This document shows positions 375 through 24,419 of a stretch of 45,669 bases of DNA, piece after piece. The notes under the pieces are model-generated. The model was not told the origin of the DNA, did no database searches, and saw only the letters and a program-made list of their open reading frames with translations. The translations under genes were made by a program, and so were the position numbers. The DNA is from Actinomycetota bacterium (GTDB lineage: Bacteria > Armatimonadota > SYMT01). Location: assembly GCA_005805375.1 (NCBI GenBank), contig SYMT01000400.1, forward strand, positions 1 to 45,669, written 5' to 3'. The stretch's first letter is position 1. Each line of letters opens with the position of its first letter.

Positions 375-1286
375 ATGGTGCGATCTGCTCGGTGGAGAAC
401 GGATGCGTGGGAGGGGTACCTCTTTGTCTCGCCCTGGTTGGTCGGGTTCCTGCTCTTCACGGCAGGGCCGATGGTTGTGTCTTTGGCGATGAGCTTCAGC
501 ACCTGGGATGGGATTACCCCCATCTCGCGCATTCGCTGGGTGGGTACCGAGAACTACGGGACGCTGCTGTTGGGTGATCCGCGGTTCGGCAAGGCGCTGG
601 GCAATACGATTCTGTACGTGCTGGGCGCTGTGCCGTTCGGGACCCTCAATGCGCTCGGGATGGCGCTGCTGCTGAATCAGGAGGTGCGGGGACAGGCGGT
701 GTTCCGCACGTTGTTCTACCTGCCCTCGGTTGTCTCCGGGGTAGCCACTTCGATGATGTGGATGTGGCTCTACAACCCGTCGTTCGGGCCGATCAATGAC
801 GCGCTCGCGCGGGTGGGTGTGCCGCAGGAACACCTCCCTGGATGGCTGACGGATCCGGCGTGGGCGCTCCCGGCGCTGGTCTTCATGTCATTCTGGGGGG
901 TTGGGAACTCGATGCTCATCTACCTGGCCGGTCTCCAGGGAGTGCCGCAGTCTCTCTATGAGGCCGCGGATCTCGACGGAGCCACTTCCTGGGTGCGGTT
1001 CCGCAATGTGACGCTGCCGATGCTCACACCTACGCTGTTATTCAACCTGGTGATGGGAATCATCGGGAGCTTCCAGACATTCACGCAGGCGTTCATCATG
1101 ACCAACGGCGGCCCGCAGGATGCGACGCTGTTCTACGTGCTCTACCTCTACCAGAAGGCATTCCAGCAGTTCAAGATGGGGTATGCGAGCGCGATGGCCT
1201 GGATCTTGTTCGCGATCGTCCTGTCGCTCACCCTCACGCTGCTGCGCAGCAGTCGGCGCTGGGTCTACTACGAGGGGGAGCGATGA
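375..1286 (+). CDS. Carbohydrate-type ABC transporter permease (MalF/UgpA-like)
   Basis: 303-aa ORF with a multi-TM profile. The N-terminus AWEGYLFVSPWLVGFLLFTAGPM and the EAA loop EAADLDGATSWVRFRNVTLPMLTP are typical of binding-protein-dependent permeases. Confidence 0.9.
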   Translation: MVRSARWRTDAWEGYLFVSPWLVGFLLFTAGPMVVSLAMSFSTWDGITPISRIRWVGTENYGTLLLGDPRFGKALGNTILYVLGAVPFGTLNALGMALLLNQEVRGQAVFRTLFYLPSVVSGVATSMMWMWLYNPSFGPINDALARVGVPQEHLPGWLTDPAWALPALVFMSFWGVGNSMLIYLAGLQGVPQSLYEAADLDGATSWVRFRNVTLPMLTPTLLFNLVMGIIGSFQTFTQAFIMTNGGPQDATLFYVLYLYQKAFQQFKMGYASAMAWILFAIVLSLTLTLLRSSRRWVYYEGER

Positions 1287-2182
1287 GGCAGGCGGGAATC
1301 GCCGGATCTGGGGGGCAGCCGCCGCCACGCAGGCGCCATTGGGTGCGACCTGCGATCGTCTGGTCTTACGTCGCTCTCGTGGGGCTCGGCGGGCTCTTCC
1401 TGGCTCCGTTCCTCTGGGCGCTCGCCGCCAGCTTCAAGACCAACGCGGCCATCTATGAGTATCCTCCCAATTTCCTCCCGCACCCGTTCCACCCGGAGAA
1501 CTACCGGATGGCGCTGACCGTGCTGCCGTTCTGGCAGTTCGCGTGGAATACGGTCGTAGTCACTCTCTCCTGCGTCCTGGGGCAACTGCTCACGGGAAGT
1601 CTCGTTGCCTACAGCTTTGCCCGCCTGCGGTGGCCGGGACGGGATGCCTGGTTTGTGGTGCTCCTCGGCACCATGATGCTGCCCCCCCAGGTGACGATGA
1701 TTCCCACCTTTGTCGGGTGGACCCAACTGCGCGCGGTCACCGGGGTGGACTGGGTGGATACGTACCGTCCACTCATCATTCCGAGCTATCTGGGCGGCAG
1801 TGGGGTGTTCATTTTCTTGATGCGGCAGTTTTTCAAGACGCTGCCGGTCGAGCTCGAGGATGCGGCGCGGATGGATGGGTGCAGCACATGGCTCACCTAT
1901 TGGAAGGTCGTGCTGCCGCTGTCACGCCCGGTACTGGCTACAGTCGCAGTGCTCTCCTTCATTGCTCACTGGCACGACTTCCTGGGACCCCTGATCTACC
2001 TGAACAGCGTGGATAAGTACACCATCCAGATCGGGCTGCGCATGTTCCAGGACATCAACGGCAGCCGGATGAATCTGCTCATGGCCGCCAGCATGATTGT
2101 CTTGCTTCCCGTACTGACACTCTTCTTTGCCGCACAACGGTACCTGGTAAAGGGCATCGTTCTCTCCGGTATCAAAGGGTAA
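1283..2182 (+). CDS. Carbohydrate-type ABC transporter permease (MalG/UgpE-like)
   Basis: 299-aa ORF. Its ATG overlaps the upstream stop as ATGA (1283-1286). EAA loop EDAARMDGCSTWLTYWKVVLPLSRP; multi-TM profile. Confidence 0.9.
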   Translation: MRQAGIAGSGGQPPPRRRHWVRPAIVWSYVALVGLGGLFLAPFLWALAASFKTNAAIYEYPPNFLPHPFHPENYRMALTVLPFWQFAWNTVVVTLSCVLGQLLTGSLVAYSFARLRWPGRDAWFVVLLGTMMLPPQVTMIPTFVGWTQLRAVTGVDWVDTYRPLIIPSYLGGSGVFIFLMRQFFKTLPVELEDAARMDGCSTWLTYWKVVLPLSRPVLATVAVLSFIAHWHDFLGPLIYLNSVDKYTIQIGLRMFQDINGSRMNLLMAASMIVLLPVLTLFFAAQRYLVKGIVLSGIKG

Positions 2183-2290
2183 GCCTGCACGGCCGTCCGA
2201 ATGTTGGTCCGGAGGGTCTCGCTGCGACTTTTGCTTGCTCCGGTGCGTCTGACTGACACAACGGGAACAGACGGCCACGGAGAAAGCACG

Positions 2291-3559
2291 ATGCAATACA
2301 AGCAAGGCGGGAAACGGGTCTGCGCACTCGCGGTGGCTCTCACCGCCGGCAGCACGATGATGGTCGGCGCCACGCCAAGGACTCCGCAGCACTCGGCAGA
2401 CGCAGGAGGGCGCTCCGCGGCCGGTCAACCTGGCGCGGCGCAACTGGCCCAATTGTTTGGACCTGGAAGTGGGGGTATCGGCCAGGGCGGCGGGTTCGGC
2501 CAGGGTGGCGGGTTCGGCCAGGGCGGCGGGTTCGGCCAGGGTGGCGGGTTCGGCCAGGGCGGCGGGTTCGGCCAGGGCGGCGGGTTCGGCCAGGGCGGCG
2601 GGTTCGGGCAGGGCGGCGGGCTCGGTCAGGGGAGTGGTTTTGGAAACCGGCAAGGGGGGATCGTCCCCGGCGGCGGCACATTTGTGCTGGCGGCGGGCCA
2701 GACTGCGACGCTTGCCGCTTTCTGCACGGAACTCACTGCTGACCCGCCGGACGAGACGACTCGTTTTCAGGTCGGCGAGGGGGCGCTGGTGGCGGCATCC
2801 GGTGGAACCACACTGCCGCTCGATCAGGCGATTCGCGCGGGGCTTGTGGGGATCCGCGGACACAGCCGTACCTTTGATCCTGCACGGCGGGATGGCAGCC
2901 TCGCCCTGGACCTGCATCTGGGGAACTTCTCCGGACAGCCGGTCCGCGTGACGCTGCCGCGGGGTACCCAACTCACACCGGAGGGAGGCGCAGCACAGTC
3001 CCTGCCCACCGGGGCGCAGCAACTCCTCGACCTGGCGGGACGGCAAGGTCTGACCCATCGCAACACCCTCCAATTCGCCGTATGGGCGGCGCGGGGGAGC
3101 ACGACCGAGGAGGTGGAGCAATCGTACCTTCAGGTGCTGCCTCCGACTGAGACGGTGAAGGTGCAAAGCCTCCTGGATCGCAGTGCGATCGCGCGCACGT
3201 TTGATCGGGATCGCGGAGTGTATGCGGCGCGTTTTGAGGCACAGAAGAAGGAGTTGGGGGCGAATGTGATCCGCGACGAGCGCACTGTGTTCCTCCCGAA
3301 TGCTACCCGCGCCACTGTGGAAACCTATCGCGCCCCGGACGGAAAAGGGCTGGTGCGCCTTCGCCCGGCGAAGGGCGGGGAGTTCTTCTGCCGGGCGAGT
3401 TTCAACTCTCGCCCCGGTGGAAAACAGGAAGTGGAGCTGCGGAACCTGGTCACCGGCCGCCGGATCCATGCACTGGGAGGCCGGCTCTTGCTGGGCAACC
3501 CCGGCGCCGGAACGACCCAGGCACAAACGGCCGGACTGCGACGGGCGGCTGCCGGATAG
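2291..3559 (+). CDS. Secreted hypothetical protein with a (GQGGGF)n glycine-rich repeat
   Basis: The ORF spans 2201-3559. The preferred start is ATG 2291, with GGAGA about 9 nt upstream, which gives the signal-like N-terminus MQYKQGGKRVCALAVALTAGSTMMVGA. A Gly repeat block follows, then a roughly 300-aa region with no motif I recognise. Confidence 0.7.
   Translation: MQYKQGGKRVCALAVALTAGSTMMVGATPRTPQHSADAGGRSAAGQPGAAQLAQLFGPGSGGIGQGGGFGQGGGFGQGGGFGQGGGFGQGGGFGQGGGFGQGGGFGQGGGLGQGSGFGNRQGGIVPGGGTFVLAAGQTATLAAFCTELTADPPDETTRFQVGEGALVAASGGTTLPLDQAIRAGLVGIRGHSRTFDPARRDGSLALDLHLGNFSGQPVRVTLPRGTQLTPEGGAAQSLPTGAQQLLDLAGRQGLTHRNTLQFAVWAARGSTTEEVEQSYLQVLPPTETVKVQSLLDRSAIARTFDRDRGVYAARFEAQKKELGANVIRDERTVFLPNATRATVETYRAPDGKGLVRLRPAKGGEFFCRASFNSRPGGKQEVELRNLVTGRRIHALGGRLLLGNPGAGTTQAQTAGLRRAAAG
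2480..2623 (+). repeat. 18-bp in-frame tandem repeat x8 (GGCCAGGGYGGCGGGTTC) encoding GQGGGF
   Basis: Eight consecutive 18-bp units differ only at a GGC/GGT wobble position and in the last unit (GQGGGL). The antisense ORF 2340-2681 (RRPGRT repeats) is the mirror artefact of this repeat. Confidence 0.95.
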
Positions 3560-3592
3560 GCTCGACCACCGGACTCCGGATGCGACCAACGT

Positions 3593-3630
3593 AAGAAGCC
3601 CGCCCCCGGCACTTCGGGAGCGGGCTTCTT
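3593..3630. terminator. Bidirectional terminator-like hairpin between the Gly-repeat gene and tRNA-Arg
   Basis: AAGAAGCCCGCCCCCG / CGGGAGCGGGCTTCTT forms a 16-bp stem with one mismatch and a 6-nt loop (GCACTT). It lies 34 nt after stop 3559 and 7 nt after the tRNA 3' end. The T-tract is weak (CTTCTTTG). Confidence 0.6.
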
Positions 3631-3637
3631 TGATGAG

Positions 3638-3709
3638 CGCCCTCGAGAGGAATCGAACCTCCGCACCCGGCTCCGGAGGCCGGTGCTCTATCCACTGAGC
3701 TACGAGGGC
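3638..3709 (-). tRNA. tRNA-Arg (anticodon CCG)
   Basis: The reverse complement is GCCCTCGTAGCTCAGTGGATAGAGCACCGGCCTCCGGAGCCGGGTGCGGAGGTTCGATTCCTCTCGAGGGCG. It has a 7-bp acceptor stem (GCCCTCG/CGAGGGC), D arm GCTC-AGTGGATA-GAGC, and anticodon stem CCGGC/GCCGG. The anticodon loop is CTCCGGA (U33, CCG, G37) and the T arm is GGAGG-TTCGATT-CCTCT. Length is 72 nt and CCA is not encoded. Confidence 0.95.
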
Positions 3710-3715
3710 ACGGGC

Positions 3716-3744
3716 ATGATACTCGACCCCATCGCCCCTGTCAA
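3716..3744 (-). promoter_or_regulatory. Near-consensus sigma70-type promoter for tRNA-Arg
   Basis: The minus strand reads TTGACA (3744..3739), a 17-nt spacer, then TATCAT (3721..3716). The -10 element ends 6 nt upstream of the mature tRNA 5' end (3709). Confidence 0.7.
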
Positions 3745-3863
3745 CGCCTTTCGCGGCCCTCTGCGGGCACGCCTGGCTGGTTACTGCCGATTGCCCCGGG
3801 TCTCTGCTATCATGATCCTCCAGCCCACGCACAGGCGCGTGGATCACACGTGCAGGTCCCCGG

Positions 3864-4202
3864 ATGCAGCGCTTGAACTTTACCCTCGACGAAGAGACGA
3901 TTCGTCTCCTCGACCAACTGGCACAGAAGTACTACCACGGGAACAAGTCACTTACCGTCAGGTCGGCGTTGGAGTCTCTCGCGGTCCATGCCGGGCATGA
4001 AGGGTGGAGTGTCGGTGGGTACACGGGTGTGGTAGCCGATGAGCGCACCCAGTGCCATACCTGCGGAGAGATGCACGACAAGGGAAATGTGCTCTACCGG
4101 CCGGTATTCCAGCGCGGGGATGGGCCGCGGGTGCTGACTCACCTGCCGGTGGAAATCTGGCTGGAGTGCGCGAGTTGTGTGGAACGCCAGGTGGTAGCTT
4201 GA
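3864..4202 (+). CDS. Ribbon-helix-helix (CopG-like) DNA-binding protein with a C-terminal CxxC...CxxC zinc-ribbon-like module
   Basis: 112 aa. The N-terminus MQRLNFTLDEETIRLLDQLAQKYYHGNKSLTVRSALESLA fits the RHH pattern (beta strand, helix, helix). The C-terminus carries QCHTCGEMH ... ECASCVE. Confidence 0.75.
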   Translation: MQRLNFTLDEETIRLLDQLAQKYYHGNKSLTVRSALESLAVHAGHEGWSVGGYTGVVADERTQCHTCGEMHDKGNVLYRPVFQRGDGPRVLTHLPVEIWLECASCVERQVVA

Positions 4203-4325
4203 GGCTGTGCCGGAGCAGGACCCTGCTGTAATTATCCACGCACATCCCCTGGCGGACTACAACGCGCATCCTGGTAGTGGTGGGCGCCCGCAGGCGTAAT
4301 GCAGGGTTCTTAACAACTTGCGGCA

Positions 4326-4342
4326 GGGATTCAGGTAATCCC
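4326..4342. promoter_or_regulatory. Perfect 6-bp inverted repeat GGGATT-N5-AATCCC (candidate operator)
   Basis: It sits in the 255-bp gap between the RHH gene and the P-type ATPase. No binding evidence exists; the call rests only on position and symmetry. Confidence 0.2.
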
Positions 4343-4456
4343 AGGCGCGTACAGGTGTATGCCATATACGGGGTGTTGGTGTGAGTGTGTGTCAGGGGTA
4401 GGTACTCTCAAGCACCCAGTTTTGCCGCCTTCCTGCCCTCATCACCCCTGCCAACG

Positions 4457-6475
4457 ATGCACCTTTTCAGTTCCAGCGATCCTGACCGTGCTCCGAATGA
4501 CCCTGCGAGTCAGCGCAGGGAGTCTACGCAGTCCCCTCACCCGGTTGTCCGCGCAGTAGTTGCCGATGGCGCCCAGCGTCCCTTGTCTGATGAGGCCCAT
4601 GGTGTCGAACCGGCCGATCTGCGGCGTGTGGTGTGCGTGGGGCTGGCGGTGCTCCTGACGAGTCTGGGCGTGGGGCGGCTGTCATCCGGGGTGAACTGGC
4701 TTGCGCTGACCGCCGTAATCATCGGTGGGATTCCGATCTATCGCCATGCCCTGGCGGCGCTGCGAGCCCACCGCATGACGATGGAGCTCTCGATGACGGT
4801 GGCGCTTGGGGCAGCACTGGGGATCGGCGAATCGTTCACCGCGCTCGTCATCGTGTTCTTTGTTCTGGGAGCGGAGATCCTGGAGGGGCTCACAGTTCAG
4901 CGGGGCCGGCAGGCCATTGAGAGATTGGTGGAGTTGCTCCCGCAGCAGGCACTGGTGCGGCACGGCGACCAGGTCATGACGGTTCCGGTCGGGGGTTTGC
5001 ACCCTGGTGACGTGGTGGTGGTGCGTCCCGGGAGCGCCATCCCGATTGACGGGATGGTGCTGGACGGGCATTCCGTTGTGGATCAGTCCACGATCACCGG
5101 TGAGTCGCGCCCTGTGGAAAAGTCAGCCGGCGCCGAAGTGTACGCCGGGACTATGAACCACGCCGGCTCGCTCGACATCCGTGTGGACCGTGTCGGAGGC
5201 GACACAGCGTACGGACGCATCATCCGCACGGTGGAAGATGCCGAGAAGACCCGGGCGCCGGTGCAGCGGGTGGCGGATCAACTTGCTGGCTACCTGGTCG
5301 TGGTAGCGGTGGTGCTCGCAGGGATTACGTTTCTGCTGACGCGAGATCTCCGGGCCACGATTTCGGTGGTCATCGTCGCCGGGGCCTGCGGGGTGGCAGC
5401 AGGCACTCCGCTGGCGCTGTTGGGTGCGATTGGGCGGGCAGCCCGGATGGGAGCGGTGATTAAAGGCGGGTTATACATCGAGACATTGGCTCGCGTGGAC
5501 ACCGTAGCGTTCGATAAGACAGGCACGCTTACCATCGGCCATCCTGCCGTCAGCGAGGTGGTCCCCGCGCCGGGCGTCTCCGAAGCAGAACTCCTGCGGG
5601 TAGCAGCGGTGTGCGAGGCGCCCTCGGAGCATCCTCTGGCCCTGGCGGTACTCCGTCGCGCAGAGGAGGCCGGGATTCAGCCGGCGGAGCCGACCGACTT
5701 CGACTACCTCCCCGGGAAGGGGGTCACAGTCTCGTACCGCGGCACTCCTGCCGTGGCGGGCTCAAGGGCATTTTTGCTGGAGCGGGGACTTACCGTGCCC
5801 GAGCCGCCGCCAGGCGAGCGCCCGGCCTCAGAAATCTGGGTGGCTCATGCGTCACGATGGCTGGGACGACTGCGTATCACGGACCCGGTGCGGCCGGAAG
5901 CGGCACAGGCATTGAAGGCGCTGCGCGCCTCCGGCGTGCGGACCCTGCTGCTGACCGGTGATGGGGAAGCCATCGCCCGGGACGTCGCTACCCAGGTAGG
6001 TCTCGATGACGTGCAGAGTTCCCTGCTCCCCCACGAGAAAGCAGAGCGCATTCGCTTGTTGCAGGCATCTGGTCGCACCGTCGCGATGCTGGGAGATGGC
6101 ATCAATGACGCTCCGGCGCTCACTGCTGCCGGCGTGGGTGTGGCGATGGGTTCGGGAACCGACGTGGCGCGGGAGAGTGCCGACGTCCTTTTGATCGGGA
6201 ACGACCTCTTGAAGTTCGTCGAAGTCTGGCAGCTCTGCCGCCGGTGTCGCCGCATCATCTTCGAGAACTTTGTGGGCACCCTCGTCGTTGATGCAATCGG
6301 GATGCTCCTGGCGGCGTTCGGCTTGCTCAGCCCGCTGCTGGCGGCGTTCATTCACGTGTCGTCCGAGTTGGGGTTTCTGCTCAACTCAGCGCGCTTGCTC
6401 CCTCGGAATGGAGGGGGAGCAGCACGGCGTACGAAAATGCCGGCGCCCGGCGCCGGCCGAGCAGCCCTGAAATAG
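4457..6475 (+). CDS. Heavy-metal (P1B-type) P-type ATPase, non-canonical, no N-terminal HMA domain
   Basis: Motifs present: ITGES (A domain), DKTGTLT (phosphorylation), SEHPLA (P1B HP motif), GDGINDAPAL (hinge). About 8 TM segments. The ORF opens at GTG 4385 and the first ATG is 4457, so the start is uncertain. The CPx position reads GAC (see findings). Confidence 0.85.
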   Translation: MHLFSSSDPDRAPNDPASQRRESTQSPHPVVRAVVADGAQRPLSDEAHGVEPADLRRVVCVGLAVLLTSLGVGRLSSGVNWLALTAVIIGGIPIYRHALAALRAHRMTMELSMTVALGAALGIGESFTALVIVFFVLGAEILEGLTVQRGRQAIERLVELLPQQALVRHGDQVMTVPVGGLHPGDVVVVRPGSAIPIDGMVLDGHSVVDQSTITGESRPVEKSAGAEVYAGTMNHAGSLDIRVDRVGGDTAYGRIIRTVEDAEKTRAPVQRVADQLAGYLVVVAVVLAGITFLLTRDLRATISVVIVAGACGVAAGTPLALLGAIGRAARMGAVIKGGLYIETLARVDTVAFDKTGTLTIGHPAVSEVVPAPGVSEAELLRVAAVCEAPSEHPLALAVLRRAEEAGIQPAEPTDFDYLPGKGVTVSYRGTPAVAGSRAFLLERGLTVPEPPPGERPASEIWVAHASRWLGRLRITDPVRPEAAQALKALRASGVRTLLLTGDGEAIARDVATQVGLDDVQSSLLPHEKAERIRLLQASGRTVAMLGDGINDAPALTAAGVGVAMGSGTDVARESADVLLIGNDLLKFVEVWQLCRRCRRIIFENFVGTLVVDAIGMLLAAFGLLSPLLAAFIHVSSELGFLLNSARLLPRNGGGAARRTKMPAPGAGRAALK

Positions 6476-17101: not shown

Positions 17102-18004
17102 ATGTCTGACCCCGGAAGACCGGCCAGTGTTGCGGGCGTTCTATCGAACGACAGGGAGCAGGACCGGCGCATTCGGTTGGCGCTGGCCGCCGACCTCTTT
17201 GAACGCGGGGCCCTCGATCTGACCGACGCCGCCCAGTTGGCGGGCATGGACCGCGCGGCGTTTCACAGCGCAGTGGCGGACCGGCATCGCTCCTCATCTA
17301 CCACCGGCGCCGGCCCGTTCCTGTCGGTCGTCATCCCGGTGTACAACGAGGTCCGGACTCTCATCCCGCTGCTTGAGGCAGTGCGTGCCGTCCCGATCCA
17401 CAAGGAAATTCTCGTCGTGGACGACGGGTCCACCGACGGGACCCGCGATCTGCTTCGCGAACAGGTCGCGGGCCTCATGCCGGAAGTCCGTGTGTTCTAT
17501 CAGCCCGAAAATCGGGGAAAAGGTGCGGCGCTGCGCCGGGGGTTTGCTGAGGCGGCCGGAGAGGTCGTGCTTGTGCAGGATGCGGATCTCGAATATGATC
17601 CCCGGGAGTATCCCCACCTGCTGCGCCCGATCCTCGACGGGAGGGCGGACGTGGTCTACGGTTCCCGCTTCCAGGGGGGCCCGCACCGGGTGCTCTATTA
17701 CTGGCATGCCGTGGGCAACGGGCTGCTGACGGCACTCTCCAACATGACTACCGACCTGAACCTCACGGACATGGAGACGTGCTACAAAGTCTTCCGGCGG
17801 GAGGTCATCCAGGGGCTGCCGCTCCGTCAAGATCGCTTCGGCTTCGAGCCGGAGGTGACCGCGAAGGTGGCCCGGCGCGGCTGGCGGGTGTATGAAATCC
17901 CCATCAGCTATGCCGGGCGCAGCTACGCCGAGGGCAAGAAGATCTCCTGGAAGGACGGTCTGCAGGCCATCTGGTGCATCCTCCGCTACGCGCGCTGCGA
18001 TTGA
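17102..18004 (+). CDS. Family 2 glycosyltransferase with an N-terminal UPF0175-like HTH extension
   Basis: The GT2 core shows [20 protein letters not shown] and [13 protein letters not shown]-terminal aa 20-60, [36 protein letters not shown], resembles UPF0175. Confidence 0.85.
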
Positions 18005-20481: not shown

Positions 20482-22344
20482 GTGCAGCTCAAACATCTCG
20501 TACTCCACGGCTTCAAGACCTTCGCGGACCGGACCGAACTGCAGTTTCCGGCCGGGCTGACCTGCATTGTGGGGCCAAACGGTTCCGGCAAAAGCAACAT
20601 CTCAGATGCCATCCAGTGGGTGCTGGGTGAGAACAATGTCCGCGATTTGCGCGGCGCCACCGCACAGGACGTGATTTTCTCCGGAAACGATCGCCGCCGG
20701 CCACTCGGCATGGCCGAAGTTTCCCTGACCTTCGACAACAGCACCCGCATCCTCCCGCTCGACTTCAGCGAGATCACGGTGACCCGCCGCCTCTACCGTT
20801 CCGGGGAAAGCGAGTGCTTCATCAACCGGGTGAGCTGCCGGCTCCGCGATCTTTACGAACTCTTTCTGGACACTGGAATCGGACGTGACGCCTACGCGAT
20901 GGTCAGCCAGGGGGAGATTGACCGGCTGCTGAGTGCCCGCGCCGAGGATCGCCGCGCCGTGTTCGAAGAAGCAGCCGGCGTCAAGAAGTATCACGTCCGG
21001 AAACGCGAGGCGCTGCGCAAGCTGGAGACCACTGAACAGAACCTGCTGCGGGTTCGTGATGTGATCGGCGAAATCGAAACCCAGTTGGGCCCACTACAGC
21101 GGCAGGCGGCGGCAGCCCGGCGCTGGCGGGACCTCATCACGCGACTCGCCTGTCTGGAAGATGCCTGGTTCGGGACCCGCCTGTGTGCGCTCGAGGCGGA
21201 GCAGGCAGCTCTGGAACAAGAGGTGACCGCCTGTCGCCACAGCGAATCAGACGTGGAGAGTGAACTCAATGCAGCACGTGCCGCGGAGCAGCGACTGCAG
21301 CCGGTCCTGCAAGAGCTGAGTGTTGCCCTTGACACCGCCCGTGCCGCGGAACTGGACACGCTCCAGCGGGAAGCGGGAGCTCGGGAAGAACTGGCCCGGT
21401 TGGAATCCCGGCTGGCAGAGGACCGCCGGCGCCTGGAGAATGCCGGACAGAGCTTGCGCGAATTGGTCTGGCGGGCTGAAGAACAGACACGCCGCGCGAC
21501 GGATGCCGCCCGTGTCGAACAGCAGCTTGTCGAAGAAACCGGCACGCTGCGGGCCTCCCTGGCACTCGCGGAACGAAGCGCACGGGAAACCCGGGAGGCG
21601 CATGAAACAGCCTCCGGTCGGCTGGAACAGATTCGGCAGGCCTGGCTGGCCGGTATGCGGCGCCAGGCCGAGGCGACAGCGCGTGTGCAGAGCCTGGAAA
21701 CGCGAGTGCAATCGCTCCACGCCCAGCGGGCCCGCGGCGCCGAGGCGCTGCACGATGCCGCAGAGGAGCAAACCCGCTGGGAAACCGAACGGGAGAGTTT
21801 CCGCACCGCCGGCACGTCTACCGGCGCACGCCTGCAGGAGACCCGCGAGGCAGCCCGCACCGCTCACACAGCAGCCCACGCGGCGGAGGCGGCTGAATCC
21901 GAAGCGCGAAAGACTCTGAACCGGGCGGAGGCAGAGCGAAACGCCCGGGCTGCCCGCCTGCAGGCCCTCCGCGAGTTACAGGAACGGGGGGAGGACCTTG
22001 CGGCAGGCGCGCGGACCTTGCTGCAGGCGGCCCGGCGCGGTCAGGCGCCGGGCCGGTGGGATCGCTTCGCGGCACTACTTTCGGCCCCTGCCGGCTGGGA
22101 GCGCGCCGTGGAATCTGCTCTGGGTCCCTATGGCGATGCACTGCTCTGCGACAGCCCCGAGGCTGCCCGGGCCGGTCTGGCCTGGCTGCGCAGCCGCAAG
22201 CTCTCCGCACTGGTCCTGCCCGACCTACCGCTGGTGAACGTCGAATGCCCCCCCGTACCCGAGCCACGCGCGTCAGCAAGTGGCGCCGGAGGCGACTGGC
22301 GAACGGCGAACGGCGAACTGCGGGCGGGGAATGGCGAATGGTGA
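20482..22344 (+). CDS. smc: Chromosome segregation protein SMC, N-terminal fragment (head, coiled coil, first half of hinge)
   Basis: GTG start. MQLKHLVLHGFKTFADRTELQFPAGLTCIVGPNGSGKSNISDAI contains Walker A. A long coiled coil follows, then the first half of the hinge (...WERAVESALGPYGDALLC...). The fragment terminates at TGA 22342-22344 inside a 7-bp repeat array. Confidence 0.9.
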   Translation: MQLKHLVLHGFKTFADRTELQFPAGLTCIVGPNGSGKSNISDAIQWVLGENNVRDLRGATAQDVIFSGNDRRRPLGMAEVSLTFDNSTRILPLDFSEITVTRRLYRSGESECFINRVSCRLRDLYELFLDTGIGRDAYAMVSQGEIDRLLSARAEDRRAVFEEAAGVKKYHVRKREALRKLETTEQNLLRVRDVIGEIETQLGPLQRQAAAARRWRDLITRLACLEDAWFGTRLCALEAEQAALEQEVTACRHSESDVESELNAARAAEQRLQPVLQELSVALDTARAAELDTLQREAGAREELARLESRLAEDRRRLENAGQSLRELVWRAEEQTRRATDAARVEQQLVEETGTLRASLALAERSARETREAHETASGRLEQIRQAWLAGMRRQAEATARVQSLETRVQSLHAQRARGAEALHDAAEEQTRWETERESFRTAGTSTGARLQETREAARTAHTAAHAAEAAESEARKTLNRAEAERNARAARLQALRELQERGEDLAAGARTLLQAARRGQAPGRWDRFAALLSAPAGWERAVESALGPYGDALLCDSPEAARAGLAWLRSRKLSALVLPDLPLVNVECPPVPEPRASASGAGGDWRTANGELRAGNGEW

Positions 22345-22356
22345 ATGGCGAATGGC
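22291..22356 (+). repeat. Two adjacent heptanucleotide tandem arrays: (GGCGAAC)x3-4 and (GAATGGY)x4
   Basis: GGCGACT/GGCGAAC/GGCGAAC/GGCGAAC occupies 22291-22318. GAATGGC/GAATGGT/GAATGGC/GAATGGC occupies 22329-22356. The unit length is not a multiple of 3. Confidence 0.9.
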
Positions 22357-24419
22357 GGCCGGGGCCCGGCGAACAGCCGGCAACGCCGCGGCCGACAGAC
22401 CGGAGCCACCCGAGTCCACAAGCGGTCCCGGCGCCGCATGACTCACCGGGCGTGGCAGGCGCCGAACACGACTGCGCCGACAGGTCCGCCCGCGATATTC
22501 GCATCTCCCAGGCAGCGGCATGGGCCGAAGCGCTACTGGTGACTACCCTGCTTGTGCCGGAACTTCCCGACCTACCGGACCCCGCCCGGCCCGATGTAGA
22601 GTTGTGGGTCGCGCAGGACGGGAGCTGGCTGACTCGGCAGGGCGCACGGAGCGGCGGTCCGGCGGGGGCAGAAGGCTCCGCAGCGATTCTGCTCGCGCGG
22701 CAGCGGGAAGTCGAGCAACTCGTGGCGATGCTCCCTCCCCTGGAGACTGCCATCACGACAGCACGGCAGGCGCTCGGGGAGGCGGAACAGGCGTCGAAGG
22801 TGGCGCGCACCGCACTCGCCGCCCGTCAGGGAGAGGAAGAACGCCTGCGTCTGGAGCAGCAGGCCGCACTGCGCGACGTGGATCGGCGGCATCAGGAAGC
22901 GACACGCGCCCAGCATCGCGTGGAGCGCCTGCGCGCCGATCTGGCGCGGTTGGAGCAGGAGATCAGTGCGGCCGAAGCCTCGCTCGCAGCCGCGCGGCGT
23001 GACGCTCCGACCGCGCCGGCGCGGACTGCTGCCAACGAAGCGCCGGCCCCCAGCGCCGAACTCGTTGCGGCGCAGGATACTGCCCGGCGCAGTGAGACCG
23101 AACGCCGGCAGGCGGATCAGGTCGTTACCGATTTGCGCGTGCGTCTCGCAGGACAGGAACAGCGCACCCGCGAAGCCGGCGCAGCGGCACGACGATTGGC
23201 GGACGGACTCGAACGCCTGAACCGGGAGCAAACAGAGGGGATTCACGCCGAGGCGGCGCTGCGAGACGCGGTCACGCGCTCCCGGGCGGCGCTGGAACCG
23301 CTGGGAGAGCGCCTGACTGCGGCCCGAGCCTCTCTGGTAGTCACGCGCGACACGCTTTCCCGTCTCCAGAAGTCCCGGGCAGAGCGCCAGGAAGAGCTGG
23401 AACAGATCCGGGCCCGCACCGCGGCACTCACGACGCGTCTCCGCGCGCTGCTGGACACACTCCGCCGCGTGGAGGTACGACTTGCCGAAGTGTCTGGCCG
23501 GCGCACGGGACTCGCAAGTCAGTGGTTGGAAACCGCTGCCTCCCGGCCGACGGCGGCGGAGCTTGCCGGCGCGGGAGGGTCTGCCGCCGCGGGACCTGGC
23601 GGGGGCGCTTCTGCCGCTCCCACAGATTTGTCAGCACCGGGTGATGGCCCTGTGCCGGAGCCGCCTGACCTCCTCGGCTTGCTGCGTGCAGATTGGGACC
23701 GGGAGGCGGCCGCCCGCGTGCTGGCGGAACACGGAGCGCCGGAAGAAGAACTCGGGCGCCTCCGCCGGCAACTCCGCGCGTTGGGCGCGGTGAATCCGGA
23801 AGCGGACGCTCAGCTCGCCACGGCGCGCGAGCGCTTCGAATTCCTGTCCACGCAGCAGAAAGATCTGGAAACGGCGCGTGAGCAATTGCTGGGCGTGGTC
23901 GGAGACCTCGACGCCGCCAGCCGGGACACCTTCCTGAAGGCGTTTCGCGAGATTGCCGTTGCCTTCGAGGAGATGTTTCAGAAACTCTTCGGCGGCGGTG
24001 CGGCCGAACTTCGGCTCACCGATCCAGAGGATGTGCTCCAAACCGGTGTGGACGTATTCGTACAACTTCCGGGCAAGAAGCCGCAGAACCTGATGCTGCT
24101 CTCCGGGGGTGAGCGGGCGCTGACCGCCACTGCCATGCTGTTTGCACTGTTGAAGGTGCGGCCCAGTCCGTTCTGCGTGCTCGACGAGGTAGATGCACCG
24201 CTCGACGAAAGCAACGTGCACCGGTTCGCCGCAGTGCTACGGGAGTTTCTCGCGCAAACTCAGTTTCTAATAGTGACTCACAACCGCGGCACGATGGAGC
24301 GCGCTGACGTGCTCTACGGAGTGACCATGCAGGAGCAGGGAGTGAGCAAGGTGCTCTCCTGCACGCTGTCGGATCCGGTGGTTGCCCAGGTGAAAGCCGA
24401 ACAAGACGCCGCAGCCTGA
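22338..24419 (+). CDS. smc: Chromosome segregation protein SMC, C-terminal fragment (second half of hinge, coiled coil, head)
   Basis: This fragment is in a different frame from the N-terminal fragment. The second half of the hinge reads ARDIRISQAAAWAEALLVTTLLVPEL...VAQDGSWLTRQGARSGG. A coiled coil follows, then the signature LSGGERALTA and Walker B FCVLDEVDAPLD. The first in-frame ATG is 22338, overlapping the upstream stop as ATGGTGA. Confidence 0.88.
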   Translation: MVNGEWRPGPGEQPATPRPTDRSHPSPQAVPAPHDSPGVAGAEHDCADRSARDIRISQAAAWAEALLVTTLLVPELPDLPDPARPDVELWVAQDGSWLTRQGARSGGPAGAEGSAAILLARQREVEQLVAMLPPLETAITTARQALGEAEQASKVARTALAARQGEEERLRLEQQAALRDVDRRHQEATRAQHRVERLRADLARLEQEISAAEASLAAARRDAPTAPARTAANEAPAPSAELVAAQDTARRSETERRQADQVVTDLRVRLAGQEQRTREAGAAARRLADGLERLNREQTEGIHAEAALRDAVTRSRAALEPLGERLTAARASLVVTRDTLSRLQKSRAERQEELEQIRARTAALTTRLRALLDTLRRVEVRLAEVSGRRTGLASQWLETAASRPTAAELAGAGGSAAAGPGGGASAAPTDLSAPGDGPVPEPPDLLGLLRADWDREAAARVLAEHGAPEEELGRLRRQLRALGAVNPEADAQLATARERFEFLSTQQKDLETAREQLLGVVGDLDAASRDTFLKAFREIAVAFEEMFQKLFGGGAAELRLTDPEDVLQTGVDVFVQLPGKKPQNLMLLSGGERALTATAMLFALLKVRPSPFCVLDEVDAPLDESNVHRFAAVLREFLAQTQFLIVTHNRGTMERADVLYGVTMQEQGVSKVLSCTLSDPVVAQVKAEQDAAA

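Follow-up and report, generated by a model that had tools for sequence, protein, structure and literature searches.

An smc gene interrupted within a heptanucleotide-rich hinge insert, and a single-unit toggle of smc in a related species

How does the smc gene of a bacterium come to lie in two reading frames, and does the interruption exist in the organism's DNA or in its assembly? The question is raised by a stretch of 45,669 nucleotides (nt) of contig SYMT01000400.1, from an Actinomycetota bacterium that GTDB places in Armatimonadota, analysed here over its whole length and called the window, in which smc, the gene of a chromosome-organisation ATPase, breaks at the hinge inside a tract of heptanucleotide repeats. 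An original prediction, made from the letters of this DNA, had offered an assembly error, slipped-strand phase variation or a naturally hinge-split protein as explanations. From the anatomy of the gene, its comparison with orthologues, its lack of decay and a 7-bp toggle of smc in a relative, we infer, with confidence evenly poised, that the break is real in the DNA and represents a genuine, evolutionarily very young indel allele, which may have a phenotypic consequence.

The smc motifs of the window are shared between two frames of the forward strand. The first open reading frame (ORF; 20482-22344, frame 1, 620 amino acids, gene P0248 in the source record) encodes the N-lobe of the head, with a match to PF02463 (SMC_N) over residues 3-180 (E = 3.6e-36) and a Walker A motif read as GPNGSGKSN at 20572-20598, followed by the N-terminal coiled-coil arm, the first half of the hinge, 37 out-of-frame codons and a TGA stop. 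PF06470 (SMC_hinge) matches at residues 524-580, and this match, together with alignments to PDB 5H69 and to the relatives and with codon usage, places the first hinge half (RWDRF...LSALVLPDLPL) at 22054-22233, the final frame-1 stretch that is homologous to intact orthologues. The second ORF belongs to frame 3, which is open over 22056-24419. It appears in the source record as a protein of 693 amino acids (P0247, 22338-24419), the gene caller having used the ATG at 22338, and its homology to intact SMC begins at 22233. It carries the second hinge half (AAAWAEALL ... LWVAQDGSW ... GARSGG) at 22512-22658, which corresponds to VTLDGD...GGAMTGG in the hinge of Geobacillus Smc, and the C-terminal SMC_N part (PF02463 profile positions 135-220, E = 7.4e-29), where the motifs of the head C-lobe occupy 24099-24296: LSGGERALTA at 24099-24128, Walker B FCVLDEVDAPLD at 24171-24206 and the H-loop VTHNRGTM at 24273-24296. 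Both hinge halves align to the Geobacillus hinge (5H69) and are colinear with intact orthologues. With a Walker A head lobe, a hinge between two arms and an LSGGE/Walker B lobe all present, the window gene fits the SMC family; it is the single, syntenic smc of the locus, standing in the order SpoIID-like gene, smc, alr. The ORFs, the Pfam matches and the motifs agree with the split as first predicted, into 20482-22344 and a frame ending at 24419. All three source-record proteins concerned (P0248, P0247 and P0245, the alr product) come from one NCBI/ENA contig of 75,398 nt, and the strain is known from one assembly; looking up the N-terminal fragment and alr as exact matches in the contig index gave no hit.

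Between the hinge halves lies a repeat-derived, low-complexity insert of ~280 nt in a hinge loop that we call site A (22233-22511, delimited by alignments and codon usage). The low-complexity insertion proposed earlier is real: ~70 of its residues have no counterpart in four relatives in a protein alignment. The repeats that had been described at 22291-22356 are real as well and form part of one degenerate array of 12 heptanucleotide units at 22291-22374 (GGCGAAC/GGCGAAT family), defined by alignments and by Tandem Repeats Finder, which reports a period-7 array at 22298-22357 with 8.6 copies and 79% matches. In register, the units read GGCGACT, three times GGCGAAC, TGCGGGC, GGGGAAT, GGCGAAT, GGTGAAT, GGCGAAT, GGCGGCC, GGGGCCC and GGCGAAC. 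This is the sole period-7 array with at least three copies across the window, and it spans the smc stop codon, TGA 22342-22344. The stop overlaps an ATG at 22338-22340 as ATGGTGA, with GGGGA (22326-22330) 7 nt 5' of the ATG, just as first noted, and the element as a whole (22326-22344) is a possible reinitiation site for the 693-amino-acid C-terminal fragment. A C7 homopolymer, which the original prediction did not take into account, occupies 22248-22254.

Fusing the two frames takes +1 or -2 nt; hence +7 or -14 also suffice, as had been computed from the repeats. Each of the simulated repairs (+1 at 22233, C7 to C8, +7, and -14) yielded one ORF of 1307-1314 amino acids, the C8 version restoring a single ORF of 1312 amino acids. 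The C7 tract is a place where a true slippage mutation may have occurred, where a base may have been miscalled, or where a -1 shift could take place. Codon usage favours frame 1 up to 22245 (log-likelihood +22.5), and over 22246-22440 the codon-usage likelihood finds no coding signal in any of the frames, so that it is unable to place the frame switch within the insert.

Alignment to the closest relative places the switch. This relative, locus L028 (Logan SRR17828888), was reached by searching with the neighbouring alr, synteny being conserved; a homology search with the N-terminal fragment gave 57% identity at best and missed this ~90%-identical full-length SMC, seemingly through a bias towards short proteins. 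L028 is 90.5-91.7% identical to the window in nucleotides over 5.4 kb, and its smc is intact, encoding 1327 amino acids. Its hinge shares the insert and the heptamer family with the window and is read there as RERRTANGERRTAIGEWRTAIGEWRSATGEQ, in the window's frame 3, and the site A insert is common to these two only, the insert that L031 has at this place being unrelated. The heptamer arrays, 12 units in the window and 13 in L028, align gap-free. Two differences separate the inserts: an in-frame gap of 96 nt (32 codons) at 22471/22472 in the MAFFT alignment, and one difference at 22233-22290 that is not a multiple of three. MAFFT writes the latter as a single 50-nt insertion at 22233-22282. 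Four pairwise scoring schemes write it instead as a 1-nt gap at 22233/22234, between CTG and GTG (22231-22236; TTGCGTG in L028), where frame-3 homology to the intact orthologue starts, plus an in-frame segment of 51 nt at 22240-22290 that has no L028 counterpart. Either way the window insert is net +50 nt relative to L028, one short of an in-frame +51.

Because the conserved frame switches at ~22233 under either alignment, the last 37 codons of the N-terminal fragment are out-of-frame read-through. Measured against the L028 orthologue, which is in frame, the defect does not correspond to any multiple of the repeat unit. Since the arrays are gap-free against L028 and the defect lies 5' of the main array, the copy number of the array is probably not what broke the window smc, although +7 would repair it. 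The window-specific segment at 22240-22290 is an old, diverged copy of insert sequence further downstream, with internal direct repeats that are 74% (22257-22294 against 22399-22436, D3) and 73% (22232-22261 against 22339-22368, D4) identical. Identity to L028 is 83% within the insert versus 91% in the flanks, and three indels fall within ~300 nt versus seven gap openings in the remaining 5.3 kb.

Downstream of the break the gene is well preserved. Between the window and L028, the ratio of nonsynonymous to synonymous divergence (dN/dS) is 0.082 for the N-terminal part and 0.125 for the C-terminal part, with 0.023 and 0.03 for the respective head portions and 0.125 for alr, at a synonymous divergence (dS) of ~0.27-0.32. 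The C-terminal head is as identical to intact relatives as these relatives are among themselves, and the codon-usage signal of the C-terminal part is normal. These values indicate that purifying selection has acted on the C-terminal 2 kb for practically all of the time since the separation from L028. Either the break is very young, or it is artefactual, or the gene functions in spite of it.

A real break of this kind has a precedent in a related species, in which repeat slippage was demonstrated to toggle smc through one 7-bp unit. In L001 (ENA ERZ27250632, a MEGAHIT-style k141 contig), smc is split at another hinge loop, site B, just 5' of WVSRDGQW, within an insert carrying (TTCAGGG)x3.7 and (CCCATCT)x3.6. 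Its near-identical twin L022 (JGI Ga0255338) is intact. The two are 99.926% identical over 10,744 bp, with one mismatch and one gap, and the gap is exactly one CATCTCC unit. A sister species present alongside it in both assemblies (L032 and L023) shows six single-nucleotide polymorphisms and zero indels over 8.8 kb; taken together, the two comparisons make the heptamer tract the only indel in ~19.6 kb. Typical k-mers exceed the perfect tract of L001/L022 in length, and reads of both alleles must therefore exist. No start codon of the split L001 allele is able to include the second hinge half, so that this is a null or N-fragment-only allele.

Among the lineages sampled, the L001 allele is the only other broken smc. 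Intact genes encode 1229 amino acids in L002 and L024, 1258 in L003, 1256 in L022, 1241 in L023 and L032, 1361 in L031 and, by start call, 1224-1252 in L029 and L030, and P0001 is continuous through the hinge. Three SMC fragments of 600-700 amino acids on long contigs (P0011, P0024 and P0017) were considered as further hinge splits and rejected; their contigs carry long-read-style names.

Hinge inserts recur at the two loop sites, at site A in the window, L028 and L031 and at site B in L001/L022, L023/L032, L003 and L031. The recent ones consist of 7-8-nt tandem repeats, and the inserts are otherwise in frame, namely in L003, L023/L032, L028 and L031. In L031 the intact gene (1193-5278) accommodates at least seven arrays of 7- or 8-nt units at three sites, net in frame, two of these sites being the hinge loops and the third the C-terminal coiled coil (for example 2935-3017, 3320-3402 and 4332-4459). 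Nearly all period-7/8 arrays with at least three copies in the loci compared are held by smc. The pattern documented across six lineages is that SMC hinge loops are the main local sink for translated 7-8-nt tandem repeats, and the hinge inserts form a small, concrete case of repeat-driven protein evolution with the frameshift risk built in. Apart from the hinge, a 15-nt repeat in 3.7 copies at 6474-6528 of L003 lengthens the C-terminal tail of SMC, encoding (SGNGA/V)n.

In this lineage the surface loop between the hinge halves has gained a fast-evolving insert of ~280 nt, built from degenerate heptamers and local duplications. On the reading that we favour, an indel in this repeat- and homopolymer-rich tract would have left the insert one nucleotide short of an in-frame length. 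Translation would then leave the conserved frame at ~22233 and terminate at TGA 22342. The allele would give a 620-amino-acid N-terminal fragment, and a 693-amino-acid C-terminal fragment only through reinitiation at the non-conserved ATG 22338; reversion would be possible by +1 nt (for instance C7 to C8), +7 or -14. With the one-unit change between L001 and L022 as a precedent, real OFF alleles are plausible in this clade. Several considerations weigh against this account. The strain is represented by its one assembly, and the interval contains C7, a classic error site, so that a consensus error could have produced the break. A fixed null allele is less likely beforehand, given how much smc matters to most bacteria. 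Nor does the lesion amount to a clean gain or loss of repeat units, and the analogy with L001/L022 is therefore an indirect one. Finally, the two sequences are compatible with either polarity of the 50/51-nt indel.

The strongest competitor, a possible explanation to which we give a minority share of our confidence, is a sequencing or assembly artefact: the true smc would be continuous, at ~1312 amino acids, and one base would have been lost, for example through C8 being read as C7, or the assembler would have followed a chimeric path through strain-variable repeats. The net deficit of a single base falls in those 60 nt of the window that are most prone to error, with their C7, their heptamers and their hypervariability, the window comes from a single contig of a metagenome-assembled genome (MAG), and the strong purifying selection on the C-terminal part is what one would expect if the gene were actually intact. 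Plain indel errors that split SMC genes are, moreover, common in long-read metagenome contigs. In L019-L021 the gene is split near the hinge, and in L019, the one whose junction was read, the lesion is a plain indel without repeats; these splits probably stem from errors in the consensus, and fragments of this sort are listed preferentially by the homology search. A noisy assembly is hard to reconcile with the remainder of the window. All 30 of the other genes checked are full length by Pfam match, among them those for a P-type ATPase, SdhA/SdhB, alanine racemase, aspartate kinase, an E1 dehydrogenase, TrpD and TrpC, and smc is the only break in 45.7 kb. Seven further homopolymers of 7 nt and 22 of six nt break no full-length gene, and 26 of them lie inside ORFs. 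No perfect repeat stretch exceeds 21-28 nt, which is below read length and typical k-mers, and the best pairwise alignment puts the 1-nt gap between CTG and GTG, which is not a homopolymer.

A broader reading, which we regard as doubtful, makes the non-triplet 7-8-nt tracts in the hinge loops a reversible switch of the condensin between ON and OFF, or between full-length and split forms, with the window and L001 as OFF-phase alleles. The earlier suggestion of slipped-strand variation stands in part: the mechanism is real in the clade, as L001 and L022 show, whereas the array of the window is unchanged against L028 and the defect lies 5' of it. Were the switch real, a core protein of chromosome organisation would be phase-variable in bacteria that live freely.

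It is decidedly unlikely that the window encodes a naturally split SMC, in which polypeptides of 620 and 693 amino acids would be made by translational coupling at ATGGTGA and would join again by way of their hinge halves and the antiparallel coiled coil. The in-frame ATG overlapping the stop, with GGGGA 7 nt upstream, would suit such an arrangement, as would the position of the break in the loop between the hinge halves and the purifying selection on the C-terminal part; no terminator or promoter was found between the two parts. Yet the 91%-identical L028 is intact, and no other lineage is split at site A (L002, L003, L022, L023/L032, L029/L030, L031 and P0001). The ATG at 22338 is not conserved in L028, which has GGACGGCGATCGG there, in an ACG/GCG context. 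Such an ATG is also expected by chance, as each GAATGG unit yields one and successive units cover the three frames, and in L001, where smc is also split, there is no start codon by which a second fragment could include its hinge half. The comparison with relatives, intact save for the L001 allele, thus tells against this part of the original prediction.

Recoding, by which full-length SMC would be produced through a -1 ribosomal frameshift or transcriptional slippage on C CCC CCC, seems to us very improbable. The shift that is needed is indeed -1, the C7 is set in frame as TGC CCC CCC, which would let tRNA-Pro re-pair, and a shift at this place yields the reading frame of the orthologue. Against this, folding of the insert RNA gave no significant structure (z = -0.19), and the segment with the C7 is missing from L028 and hence not conserved. 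CCC CCC is not known as an efficient -1 slippery site. The weakest explanation, an old and decaying smc pseudogene whose role a different SMC-like system, encoded at another place in the genome, would have assumed, can in effect be dismissed, as the interruption is the gene's single lesion, all catalytic motifs are intact, codon usage in the C-terminal part is normal, the dN/dS of that part (0.125) equals that of alr and is near that of the N-terminal part, and the C-terminal head stands at 0.03, all of which runs counter to the decay that had been named as a possible refutation of the original prediction.

If the young indel allele that we favour is real, smc-null or split alleles would be frequent enough in populations to dominate an assembly. 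This would bear on the extent to which slow-growing environmental bacteria can do without Smc-ScpAB, and would mean that hypermutable non-triplet repeats can reside inside a core gene. If the break is an artefact, it cautions that interrupted core genes of MAGs gather in tracts of biological hypervariability and call for a look at the reads ahead of any interpretation.

Some repeats outside smc deserve mention. At 267-372 of the window, (AGGGGCTGGA)x10.5, 98% perfect, ends 3 nt 5' of ATG 375 of an ABC-transporter permease gene; as a long non-triplet simple sequence repeat (SSR) in a 5' leader, it could modulate expression. At 2473-2631, within the ORF 2201-3559, an in-frame 18-nt repeat in 8.8 copies encodes (GFGQGG)n in a protein of 452 amino acids whose N-terminus is hydrophobic and which matches no Pfam family. 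A single ORF at 17102-18004 combines an N-terminal match to UPF0175 (antitoxin-like) with a GT2 glycosyltransferase domain, and may be two genes or have an over-extended start. Elsewhere, paired and mostly inverted arrays of 4-6 tandem heptamers around short spacers, capable of forming hairpins, are frequent between the genes of MAG loci from Omnitrophota and Planctomycetota. Paired heptamer arrays lie at 2096-2185 of L004, at 99-195, 1068-1171 and 5070-5143 of L005, at 3385-3439 of L006, at 22-109 and 1971-2039 of L007, at 5428-5500 of L013, at 111-228 of L018 and at 8586-8862 of L021. Some heptamer units recur across phyla, GGTTCAG in L001 and L013 and TGCGGAA in L004 and L006. A repeat-peptide search of genome contigs further found, in a Planctomycetota MAG (L018, 3264-3360), an unrelated (GGCGAAC)n array of 13.9 copies with the variants GGCGACT and GGCGAAT of the window insert; it is apparently non-coding and lies near a contig end.

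How does the locus compare with systems already described? Literature searches turned up no account of a bacterial smc that is split or phase-variable. The SSR contingency loci of Haemophilus, Neisseria, Helicobacter and others resemble the locus in having non-triplet tandem repeats inside an ORF, here the 12-unit array and the C7 of the window, and in that a change of one 7-bp unit toggles the frame between L001 and L022, which are 99.93% identical. They differ in what is affected, here a housekeeping chromosome-organisation ATPase of an environmental, Armatimonadota-like lineage rather than a surface or restriction-modification gene of a host-adapted pathogen. Further, the arrays here are short (3-4 perfect units) and degenerate, and the window defect is not an integral number of units against the intact orthologue.

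Heptamers are the most abundant class of long SSRs in prokaryotes and have been ascribed to polymerase slippage (PMC4692102 and PMC4679880, citing Mrazek et al. 2007). With the heptanucleotide SSRs of cyanobacteria, Xanthomonas (GGGAATC) and Beggiatoaceae (TAACTGA), the repeats described here share the 7-nt unit, the variability of length and sequence between close relatives and, in L004-L007, L013 and L018, the inverted pairing of arrays. The arrays described before are, however, overwhelmingly intergenic, whereas those of smc are translated within the hinge of an essential-type protein. The tandem repeats in Borg proteins (PMC9879509) are likewise fast-evolving, independently arising repeats inside ORFs that encode low-complexity, probably disordered insertions. 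Here, by contrast, the host is a bacterium and the units are of 7-8 nt, so that a single-unit change breaks the frame. The in-ORF repeats of Borgs are reportedly multiples of three.

Genes split by frameshifts in metagenomes, through consensus indel errors as in L019-L021, share with the window the appearance of one gene called as two adjacent ORFs in different frames; the window differs in having no other split gene in 45.7 kb and in that the break coincides with a biologically hypervariable tract. In comparison with canonical Smc (Smc-ScpAB; hinges 5H69 and 4RSJ), the protein retains Walker A, signature and Walker B motifs, a hinge and two long arms, and the synteny with alr is kept in the clade. 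What sets it apart is an insertion of 70-105 residues in the loop after the 'FLPL'-type strand, the very place at which the ORF is interrupted in the window assembly.

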